Below, piece by piece: positions 25,883 to 57,852 of a stretch of 64,000 nt of DNA; within the stretch, counting starts at the first letter, position 1, and every line of letters begins with the position of its first letter. Position numbers and translations under genes: made by a program. The notes beneath the pieces are model-generated. The model searched no databases. It saw nothing but the letters and a program-made list of their open reading frames with translations, and was not told the origin of the DNA. Source of the stretch: an uncultured virus (IMG/VR IMGVR_UViG_3300030061_000857) (Duplodnaviria; Heunggongvirae; Uroviricota; Caudoviricetes; Crassvirales); the IMG/VR virus record IMGVR_UViG_3300030061_000857, one strand, 5' to 3'.

Positions 25883-26746
25883 TTAAAAAATGTACCTTAT
25901 AGTATTCCAAGGCACTTTGCTTTCATGTATCTGTCTAAACTGTTTAATATATTTAGACTTCTCTCCAAGTTTGTAGCGTACGTTTTCTCCACCATACTGT
26001 GATTTTTTTATCTCTTGCTTATCAATAACCCATAGATCTACTTCTGTCTCTGGATGTCTATCTAAGTTTACAGTATGCTTTTTAAAGTTGTGTGTCAAAA
26101 ATATACACTCTGCTAAAACTTGATTTTTGTAACTTACATAATCATTCATCATATCAAATATATACTCATAGTCTTGTAACCAACCATCGTATACAATAAT
26201 AGGACTGTAGTTTACATGTACATCATAACCGGCTTCTATAAATGCATCGATAGCTTTTATTCTGTCAATGATCTTAGATGTACCAGGCTCATGTAAATCT
26301 GACTTATGTTGTGGCATTAGACTAAATCTAATACGTATTTTACCTTTAGGGTCAAAGTTTATTAACTCTGGGTTTACAAATTTAGTTGCAAAGCTACCCA
26401 TAGCTACAGGATGATCTCTAAAGAACTCGAATATCCTTTGCCAATCATGATATTTAGCATGCAACGCAAAATCTTCGTTACAGCTAATATCATAAGTGGT
26501 ATATTCTGCATGGGTCTGATTAGGTTTATCTACTGGTGTAAAATACGCATGATTATTAATCTCTGTTAATATATCACCGGTGTTTACAGCAATAGACAAA
26601 CCTTTATCTTTATGACGTTTCATATAACAGTAAGAACAATTATACAAACAGCCATACCCAAAACTAGGAGATATAAAATCCGTAGATCTACCCGAAGGCC
26701 TTATCGTGAACGTTTTTCGTACATCCTTAGTTATTAGTTTTCCCAT
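25883..26746 (-). CDS. splB: Spore photoproduct lyase-like radical SAM enzyme
   Basis: GCLYNCSYCYM (CxxxCxxC followed by Tyr), YDISCNEDF, FATKF, RIRFSLMP, RIKAID..GYDVHVNYSPII motifs typical of the SplB family. Confidence 0.8.
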   Translation of the reverse strand: MGKLITKDVRKTFTIRPSGRSTDFISPSFGYGCLYNCSYCYMKRHKDKGLSIAVNTGDILTEINNHAYFTPVDKPNQTHAEYTTYDISCNEDFALHAKYHDWQRIFEFFRDHPVAMGSFATKFVNPELINFDPKGKIRIRFSLMPQHKSDLHEPGTSKIIDRIKAIDAFIEAGYDVHVNYSPIIVYDGWLQDYEYIFDMMNDYVSYKNQVLAECIFLTHNFKKHTVNLDRHPETEVDLWVIDKQEIKKSQYGGENVRYKLGEKSKYIKQFRQIHESKVPWNTIRYIF

Positions 26747-41678: not shown

Positions 41679-42202
41679 TTTAAAATATTTAATTGGTTTA
41701 TTATTGTGATAATTTGAGGTATTATCGTGACCTTTTGTAGTTAAAAGACTCTTATCATACACCTATCATCTATCAAAGTAGTAAATAGTATGTAGAGTTT
41801 GTGAGTCTTTTTAAATTATAAGAATAGTAGTCAAACCCCTCTCCTTATATGACTTTCAGTTTGCAACCCTAATATAATTACCTACTAACGTCGCAGTAAC
41901 TCTATATTAGCAAAAACTGAGGCATGGAGTGCACGTTCACCTAATCTAAGGTGTACCATGTGTGAACTATTCTAGAAGTTAACTAAGGATAGGCAAACAA
42001 GTTATTATGAAAACACAACGTTAGTTGTAATTAATTATAAAAACCTATCCTTAGTTATTAAGTGTTATATTGTATTATGTAAACAATTACAATAGTTGTT
42101 GATTTAGGCTTAAATCGTGCGAATACAGCCTAGTGCGCACACTTACACGTTGAATAGCAAGTGTTTTTGATTGTTGTGCGTATGTTTTTTGATTGTGCGT
42201 GT

Positions 42203-42482: not shown

Positions 42483-42632
42483 AACGCAATTTTGTATTAA
42501 CACCAGTATCCCAATACGGGGTACTTTAAGTGCGTTGTATAGCGGGGGTCATTGACTGTGTTGGTTAGTACGCTCACAAAACCTGTTAAAAAAAATTTTT
42601 TGGTAATTTTATTTTTTTATTCAAAGTTTTTA

Positions 42633-42640
42633 TATCTTTG
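42633..42640 (+). promoter_or_regulatory. Bacteroidota -7 promoter element (TATCTTTG)
   Basis: Matches TAnnTTTG in an AT-rich context directly before the structured RNA candidate. Confidence 0.65.
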
Positions 42641-42643
42641 CAC

Positions 42644-42900
42644 TGCAACATTATTCATCCCCCGGTAACCAAAAAAGGGATTAGACATCGGATTGTAGTC
42701 TCAAATAGAGATAGAGTTTTCTCCGGTAGTTGCAAAAGAGTTAAGGTATAAGCTCTAGTTAGGATACAATGCACACAGGTAAGTGCGATGAATTAACATC
42801 AGTTTTAGTATCCTTGGGTCCCGTAAAACGGAGCACTGCTAGAGTGAAATCACAACTTGAAAAAGAATCCTCAAGGGGGAGAGCTATATTTTCTCCACAG
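42644..42900 (+). ncRNA. Candidate structured non-coding RNA (~255 nt)
   Basis: GC-richer island between two promoters with about 9 nested helices; G-U pairs work on the + strand (see findings). Confidence 0.55.
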
Positions 42901-42903
42901 ATA

Positions 42904-42936
42904 TTTGGAAATGTAAAAAAATTGTTTATATATTTG
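42904..42936 (+). promoter_or_regulatory. Bacteroidota promoter (TTTG-N21-TATATTTG) upstream of groES
   Basis: TTTG at 42904-42907 and TATATTTG at 42929-42936. Confidence 0.75.
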
Positions 42937-42953
42937 TAAAAAAATATATAGAT

Positions 42954-43223
42954 ATGAAATTTAAACCAAGTGGAAGCTGGATAGTCCTTCCGGACCCAGT
43001 AATTACAGAAACAGAATCAGGAATAATATTAGATGAAGCTACGGCTATGGAGAACTCTAAACGATCAAACGTTTTGGAGGCGATAGCTGTTGGGCCTCAT
43101 TGTAACTTTGTAGAAAAAGGTGACACTGTAATGGTAGATCCTAGATCAGAGGCTGCAAGAACAGAAATAGATGGTAAATTATACCTAATTATTTCAGAAC
43201 ATCAAATATTAGGCAAGTGGTAA
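42954..43223 (+). CDS. groES: Co-chaperonin GroES/Cpn10
   Basis: MKFKP, TESGIIL mobile loop, AIAVGP, VEKGDTV, YLIISEHQILG. Confidence 0.85.
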   Translation: MKFKPSGSWIVLPDPVITETESGIILDEATAMENSKRSNVLEAIAVGPHCNFVEKGDTVMVDPRSEAARTEIDGKLYLIISEHQILGKW

Positions 43224-47092: not shown

Positions 47093-47428
47093 ATGAATAA
47101 AGCAAAAGATTGTAAACCTTATAACCCTCTGCCAGAATACTTGGCGATTGGACCATCAGATATTCACGGAGCGGGGATCCTAGCAAAAGAAGATATTCCG
47201 GGAGAGGTAGTTATAGGTATTACACATGTATACGATCCAAACTTTCAACACAATTATATTAGAACACCATTAGGAGGATTTATTAACCATAGTAATGATG
47301 CTAACTGTGAATTGATGGATAAAGATGAGGATTATCATTATAAGGTGATAAAAACAAAACGTAAGATAGAGGCAGGAGAAGAGCTGACTTTAAAATACAG
47401 TTTGTATGATATATGTAATTATTTGTAG
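47093..47428 (+). CDS. SET-domain protein (putative lysine methyltransferase)
   Basis: SDIHGAGILAKEDIP, FINHSNDANC and IEAGEELTLKY: the GxG, NHS and ELxxxY SET motifs. Confidence 0.9.
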   Translation: MNKAKDCKPYNPLPEYLAIGPSDIHGAGILAKEDIPGEVVIGITHVYDPNFQHNYIRTPLGGFINHSNDANCELMDKDEDYHYKVIKTKRKIEAGEELTLKYSLYDICNYL

Positions 47429-54377: not shown

Positions 54378-54421
54378 GATTAAGGTTGTGGGGATTAATT
54401 TCCCCATGACTTTAGTCTTTA
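54378..54421 (+). terminator. Long hairpin after the MCP gene (terminator or stabiliser)
   Basis: GATTAAGGTTGTGGGGA/TCCCCATGACTTTAGTC 17-bp stem with G-U pairs on the + strand, followed by TTT. Confidence 0.6.
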
Positions 54422-57818: not shown

Positions 57819-57852
57819 TATAGGGGGCATTAGTCCCCCTATATATCTTTTT
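57819..57852 (+). terminator. Intrinsic terminator
   Basis: TATAGGGG(G)...CCCCTATA hairpin followed by a T-rich tract. Confidence 0.65.

Follow-up and report, generated by a model that had tools for sequence, protein, structure and literature searches.

A structured non-coding RNA gene at the strand switch of a crAss-like phage

The window, the whole 64,000-nt stretch of DNA that was analysed, is a portion of a crAss-like phage genome that includes genes for TerL, a portal protein, a GroES-like protein and a protein of the Crass capsid family. The crAss-like phages, a large group, infect Bacteroidota of the gut and the ocean. The window TerL is about 42% identical to TerL from gut Suoliviridae, and marine collections are the source of its close relatives, judging by contig names and run labels. 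The replication genes, on the minus strand, extend to 41762; the virion genes, on the plus strand, begin at 42954, and the first of them encodes a GroES-like protein without a match among GenBank phages. To judge from comparative sequence analysis, the gene-free strand switch between these two blocks contains a real non-coding RNA gene that falls outside any catalogued family (Table 1).

Table 1. Features of the RNA gene and its surroundings, in window coordinates.
Feature	Position	Strand	Remarks
Promoter element TATCTTTG, Bacteroidota-type -7	42633..42640	+	Conserved in homologs; P1 begins 3-4 nt downstream
Non-coding RNA gene, ~247 nt, two domains and probable 3' pseudoknot	42644..42890	+	Block kept in 72/80 loci; 76/255 columns at least 97% conserved (100 homologs)
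Domain I, three-way junction	42644..42734	+	Covarying pairs in P1, P2, P3, P4
P1	42644-49/42729-34	+	Covarying pairs
P2	42657-62/42676-81	+	Covarying pairs
AGAC linker	42683-86	+	Between P2 and P3
P3	42687-92/42722-27	+	Covarying; 100% paired in 20 near and distant sequences
UUGUA / AGAG-UUUUC internal loop between P3 and P4	Domain I	+	
P4	42698-702/42708-12	+	Covarying pairs; variable
Domain II, long irregular helix enclosing P6-P9	42738..42858	+	Covarying pairs in P5a, P5b, P6, P7, P9
Outer helix P5a	42738-46/42851-58	+	Covarying pairs
UAUAA/GAAAU loop	42747-51/42846-50	+	Retained in distant homologs
P5b	42753-59/42838-44	+	Covarying pairs
P6	42761-67/42808-14	+	Covarying pairs
P7	42771-74/42783-86	+	Covarying pairs
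P8	42787-90/42797-800	+	Fully paired, below significance
P9	42817-23/42829-37	+	Covarying pairs
Near-invariant AGGGGG	42874..42879	+	42876-79 98-100% G; weak local hairpin is the sole pairing seen
URUR(U), 3' strand of probable pseudoknot, conserved 3' end	42885..42889	+	Faces UAUA 42747-50
Second host-type promoter, TTTG...TATATTTG, for groES block	42904..42936	+	Retained even where cargo genes are inserted after the RNA
56-codon ORF overlapping the RNA, rejected as conserved feature	42769..42939	+	Frame not conserved; no PHROG match
GroES-like gene, first of terminase/portal/capsid block (context, outside the RNA)	42954..43223	+	phrog_3188, PF00166
Strong intrinsic terminators within late block	54378-54417 and 57819-57843		Conserved in related genomes

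A preliminary description of this DNA had proposed a promoter-delimited RNA of about 255 nt. The start just after a promoter and the separate groES promoter downstream both stand, but the conserved part ends at about 42890 and not at 42900. The RNA is present as a single copy in all five near-complete genomes, and the eight groES-found relatives that lack the block have at most 369 nt of sequence upstream. Among relatives, the distance between the RNA and groES varies from 59 to 2099 nt, and the RNA therefore moves as a module.

The promoter is conserved along with the RNA. A TAnnTTT[G/A]-type site precedes 168 of the 181 distinct full-length homologs among the matches listed, and a separate count found the promoter element in 100 of 108 homologs, with similar spacing in most distant ones. 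The TAnnTTTG site is one that we take to be the Bacteroidota promoter. Several loci (L113, L114, L138, L164, L072, L074, L076 and L189) lack a dedicated RNA promoter; in these, the RNA comes immediately after the stop codon of a small upstream gene, so that it would need 5' processing or would stay within the mRNA.

No terminator was found directly after the RNA in this clade. Where groES comes next it has its own promoter, whereas inserted cargo genes start without one; an intervening promoter is absent from 48 of 129 loci, in most of which unrelated cargo genes begin 6-40 nt past the RNA, so transcription reads through and the RNA is tied to no single downstream gene. This slot is a hot spot for unrelated cargo (L013, L031, L049, L066, L098, L119 and others), with ORFs that were labelled by eye as cysteine-rich, SET-like, membrane or other. 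Parts of the stretch occur in 20 RNA runs, of which four, from seawater, were examined as contigs, from which ends, strand and level are not readable; the depth over the RNA is low, like that of its flanks, and in three of the four a single contig spans the RNA into groES.

The preliminary description had allowed that the overlapping 56-codon ORF might instead be the conserved, translated feature. However, an ATG followed by at least 45 open codons is preserved in just 18 of the 181 homologs, and length changes across the ORF region, counted among the matches listed, fall in all three frames (64, 63 and 54).

Folding of the single sequence is only weakly non-random (-62.2 kcal/mol, z -1.74, with 8 of 200 shuffles equally good), and so the case for a conserved structure rests on homologs. 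Pattern scans of viral and metagenome contigs returned at least 120 loci each; 361 of 390 loci matched the profile, and these contain 181 distinct full-length sequences among the matches listed. Across 37 diverse sequences, the model is paired in 91.3% of cells, and two-sided changes are seen in 37 of its 66 pairs. That level of pairing was reached by none of 500 shuffles, and slid controls gave 37.5-44%.

Shuffles disregard kinship, and column pairs were therefore also scored against a tree-based null. This null was our own simulation: all column pairs in 100 homologs aligned to the model (mean identity 72%, the alignment being fitted to that model) were compared with 40 simulations of independent columns on the tree. 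Twenty-nine column pairs have E <=0.025, of which 19 are model pairs, out of 70 listed, distributed over nine helices; this is the covariation by which the preliminary description had proposed that the fold be judged. The other 10 link columns that lie next to a true pair or that change together, for the most part, on a deep branch. When 107 sequences were aligned without regard to structure, the top covarying pairs were largely the same. In its covarying multi-junction structure and its own promoter, the RNA resembles the ornate large non-coding RNAs, a descriptive class.

Most of the stems originally drawn from the single sequence are preserved, and the elements named lie where the preliminary description placed them. 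Covariation or near-complete pairing is seen for UGCAAC/GUUGCA, AUCCC/GGGAU, AUCGGA/UCCGGU and GUCUC/GAGAU in the first domain, and for CUCUAGU/GCUAGAG, AGGAUAC/GUAUCCU, GCAC/GUGC, GAUG/CAUC and CCGU/ACGG in the second. Three further proposals lack support when the pairing at each position is counted among the 37 sequences: the GUG/CAC hairpin (9, 12, 35), the GGAGAG/UUCUCC hairpin (23, 16, 10, 20, 31) and the alternative stem AGAGUU/AGCUCU (35, 27, 32, 17, 18, 20). The CUUGA/UCAAG hairpin can form in part (35, 33, 28, 25 and 7 of 37), but 42855-56 covary with 42740-41 instead, within an outer helix (P5a) that had been missed, as had the probable pseudoknot.

In domain I, the P3 pair 42692:42722 is A-U in nine and G-C in 11 of 20 near and distant sequences, and P4 carries inserts of about 60 nt in some relatives. 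The internal loop between these helices is presumably of the bulged-G or loop-E-like type. In domain II, distant homologs retain the outer helix and its loop while the interior varies; in one of them (L690:6200-6550, G009), the two strands of the UAUAA/GAAAU loop seem to be swapped in order.

The 3' end probably forms a pseudoknot between UAUA (42747-50) and URUR (42885-88). All four pairs are 96-100% compatible, and each URUR purine has 19 changes on the tree, nearly all of them A-G exchanges, whereas the facing UAUA is invariant, a pattern that fits a 4-bp pseudoknot clamping the 3' end. In one distant type (L677/L686), a pseudoknot A-U pair is replaced by G-C. Two-sided covariation across these pairs is below significance in the 100 homologs. 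Most distant homologs have AGGG ahead of the 3' pseudoknot strand. A helix between UUUUCU and AGGGGG was considered and discarded, as it would require four tandem G-U pairs and shows no variation.

No Rfam 15 family reaches its gathering threshold in the window, the families searched including RNase P, SRP, 6S, T-box, riboswitches, introns, GOLLD, ROOL, raiA, OLE and HEARO, and E-value mode gave chance-level matches alone for the window region, eight near loci and 12 distant loci. Resemblances to group I introns, RNase P, the cobalamin riboswitch, T-box leaders and 23S rRNA have no Rfam signal. ARAGORN detected no tRNA or tmRNA in the window, and no Rfam ribozyme was matched, in keeping with the original impression that this is not a tRNA, a tmRNA or a small ribozyme. 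The description of a structured, promoter-delimited and unrecognised RNA is thus supported by covariation, promoter conservation and the lack of Rfam or ARAGORN matches. A role as the guide or template RNA for an enzyme of the phage (retron, DRT or omega RNA) was rejected: 36 of the window's ORFs were scanned with Pfam, and none of these proteins belongs to a reverse transcriptase or TnpB/IscB family, nor does any protein family track the RNA.

The closest analogies are with GOLLD, ROOL, OLE and raiA, ornate large RNAs of bacteria or phages that are linked to phage tRNA regions; GOLLD, ROOL and OLE are larger than the RNA of about 247 nt described here. An own gene, a multi-junction fold and high conservation are common to all of them, but the present RNA has no Rfam match and was found only in crAss-like phages in our searches. 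GOLLD, ROOL and OLE form RNA-only oligomers, according to the accessible part of PMC12286853.

Non-coding RNAs have been reported from another crAss-like phage: in Cellulophaga phage phi14:2, the portion of 10.1101/2020.03.07.982082 available to us describes highly transcribed non-coding RNAs at the g004-g006 junctions, within long intergenic regions (L274:2905-4601). However, those are early transcripts; the model R1 described below reaches at best 15 bits on phi14:2, inside a gene, and the domain-I model (R2) finds nothing there. The literature searched contains no description of this RNA or of any structured RNA family for crAss-like phages. Candidate RNAs of 29-151 nt from IMG/VR, some of which lie before groES genes, are catalogued in PMC10690425; six motifs had no match in three of its supplements, and a fragment could be catalogued in the remainder. 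A term search in the accessible portion of 10.64898/2026.10.21.760802 returned no mention of crass or phage.

The distribution of the RNA is wide but uneven. When R1 was searched on 127 TerL-selected loci, it recovered three same-clade matches, one chance match and one weak true lead, L596, which has the same genomic position and a TerL 35% identical to that of the window; sequences of close relatives of L596 end before the RNA position. A pattern derived from L596 found 15 loci, all of which match R1 at 19-61 bits, with E-values that are flattered by selection. The promoter, P1, P2 and the outer helix, which are outside that pattern, are present in most of the 12 distinct distant sequences, a few of the helices having been read by eye. 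A crAss-type TerL is present in nine of the 10 records found with the pattern (28-46% identity), and the tenth has many families in common with one of these nine. R2 added an independent member, G017 (E 3e-9, TerL 54%), and had no match on 79 non-training loci. Across this range of TerL identity (28-54%), distant homologs share the outer architecture of the window RNA.

The same domain-I model detected no copy in 16 of 16 other crAss-like genomes that are at least 90% complete or in five reference genomes (cr60_1, ProJPt-Bp1, crAss001, Fpv3 and phi14:2). Because distant homologs exist and yet many crAss genomes have no copy, the family is, on this distribution, either old within crAss-like phages or moving between them, and patchy. 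Searches with blastn against GenBank phages gave nothing or short chance matches. A strict pattern had no match in GTDB genomes; a looser pattern gave at least 120 chance loci, none of which fits the profile among the matches listed, and a cellular homolog of the distant type may exist. In one 116-kb crAss-like carrier genome (G010, L691:10433-11617), an integrase gene lies near the RNA.

The RNA had been placed at the head of the late region, and this holds for the present clade and for eight of 11 distant carriers, which have it on the terL strand at a distance of 2-6 kb upstream of that gene, but not for the remaining three (G008, G009 and G017), in which it is opposite to the adjacent genes. 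The placement in the clade and in the eight carriers is the one that a cis element would have. In G009, it is directed away from the terminase block 2.1 kb off and lies near a tRNA; the plus-strand terminator of a converging unit abuts its 3' end, with the T tail on the strand opposite to the RNA. The G017 copy is located within the early block, 3.4 kb from its edge, and is antisense to the ORFs on either side; the G008 copy is flanked by two paralogous ORFs, both on the other strand. The G008 and G017 sequences are partial genomes (30% and 45% complete, respectively), and homologs are lacking for most of the ORFs next to these three copies. RNA antiterminators act only in cis, and the orientation of these three copies therefore suggests a free RNA rather than a cis antiterminator.

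The patchy distribution and the orientation fit best with a trans-acting accessory RNA, whether as a decoy or in another trans role. Specifically, we favour, with a little less than even confidence, an accessory phage RNA that acts in trans against a host machine by binding protein as a decoy or scaffold. Such an RNA would be transcribed by the host RNA polymerase in mid to late infection; here it would head a read-through transcript, and the pseudoknotted 3' end would be the likely mature end after trimming. The parts preserved from lineage to lineage (the AGA linker, P3 and its loop, the UAUAA/GAAAU loop, AGGG and the pseudoknot) may pack into one tertiary surface, with P4 and the interior of domain II being replaceable. 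The partner of that surface could be a host protein or complex that is itself conserved, with the machinery for translation or for RNA surveillance and defence as its most likely source.

Two observations favour a host target: the RNA is not accompanied by any particular phage protein, and elsewhere its usual slot is filled by tRNA arrays. A blastp comparison of 2075 ORFs from 12 carriers and four non-carriers identified no dedicated protein partner, though seven of the distant genomes are fragmentary and small or fast-evolving proteins could escape; the best candidate family occurs in four near carriers and in two of eight distant carriers. In crAss001, L539 and L544, tRNA arrays occupy the slot of the RNA, while the present clade has no tRNAs in any of 60 loci or in any of four genomes.

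A new class of ribozyme, for example one that is self-cleaving or that processes RNA, is a rather unlikely alternative. Several traits would be typical of ribozymes, namely the invariant nucleotides at the junction, the probable pseudoknot and peripheral helices that can be replaced, and one distant copy adjoins a tRNA. However, Rfam ribozymes give no match even when E-values as high as 10 are admitted, tRNAs that could be processed are absent from this clade, and the RNA occupies no intron-like position within a gene.

We consider it unlikely that the RNA is a processive antiterminator or leader that acts in cis, comparable to HK022 put, Bacillus EAR or conAn2, and that would let host RNA polymerase read through the virion block of 45-58 kb. 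In most carriers, the RNA is likewise at the head of a long operon, and in this clade it is the first element of the late block, upstream of it and on the same strand, with no terminator following. Strong intrinsic terminators are conserved within that block, after the capsid gene in four of five genomes and one block later in all five. The RNA is also similar in size to conAn2 regions, which the accessible text of PMC8191782 gives as about 260-600 bp and near the operon start; however, the same text has RNA antiterminators acting only in cis, and the orientation of the RNA is not fixed, the copies in G008, G009 and G017 opposing their neighbours. The earlier suggestion of a regulator, if taken as a cis regulator of late genes, is disfavoured by these three carriers. 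The late block also has internal promoters of its own, conserved like its terminators, with TAnnTTTG sites before groES, before the portal gene (four genomes) and before the pre-capsid gene (four genomes); late-block internal promoters are described for crAss-like phages, as for phi14:2-like phages, in the available part of 10.1101/2020.03.07.982082. Finally, no ConAn1-like partner tracks with the RNA, and there are crAss phages that have similar late blocks without it.

The near-invariant AGGGGG tract has no covarying partner and is presumably complementary to the 16S 3' end; through it, the RNA could bind ribosomes, with the tract serving as an anti-Shine-Dalgarno decoy, or could base-pair with RNAs of the host or the phage. 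This is improbable, as base pairing alone would not require two conserved folded domains. The fold may also bury the tract, which precedes the pseudoknot strand by 4-12 nt, and some members have only AGGG.

A role in packaging, as had been suggested earlier, or in some other step of virion assembly is very improbable. The phi29 pRNA, which has three-way junctions, is likewise a phage RNA near packaging genes, and the usual location of the present RNA, upstream of terL and on the same strand, would suit such a function. A packaging RNA would be present in all phages sharing the motor, but the present RNA is not universal in its phage group, being absent from the 16 near-complete and five reference genomes above, which have homologous TerL. 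Its presence does not track TerL identity, the motor is of the terminase type, and neither inter-loop pairing nor a complementary loop pair with covariation was seen.

Least probable is a replication primer, an R-loop RNA or a structured DNA element, belonging to an origin near the strand switch. The locus does combine a GC-skew minimum with the strand switch and has a G tract followed by AT-rich DNA, but the skew simply follows the coding strand. Three carriers differ in position and orientation, the G-U-type variation and the constant distance to the promoter are what an RNA would show, and genes may begin 6 nt after the RNA.

Returning to a trans-acting accessory RNA, a fold that is conserved at about 30% terminase identity and yet dispensable elsewhere behaves like a host-interaction gene made of RNA. 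It is possible, though on balance somewhat doubtful, that it represents a new class of phage RNA machine, ancient in crAss-like phages (TerL identity down to 28%), in which a conserved tertiary core acts in trans to hijack or disarm a core Bacteroidota machine such as the ribosome, RNA polymerase or an RNA-sensing defence protein, or which is a new ribozyme. The novelty may lie in the fold, and the function could be of a known kind. Natural minimal and expanded versions, with domain II interiors of about 70 and about 200 nt, are ready constructs for cryo-EM, pull-downs and cleavage assays.

Several other features of the window were observed in passing. A conserved G-rich motif lies upstream of the RNA promoter (42545-42575; strict pattern in 27 of 168 homologs), and similar motifs were seen by eye at the strand switch of crAss-like phages that do not have the RNA (Fpv3, L553 and L652); it may be an early promoter, a genome end or a packaging signal. 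Among further conserved intergenic blocks, a perfect 14-bp inverted repeat with its arms 50 nt apart (41980-42057) may mark either an origin or another RNA belonging to the early side. A SET-domain gene lies between terL and the portal gene (47093-47428), and the replication block includes a spore photoproduct lyase gene (25883-26746).
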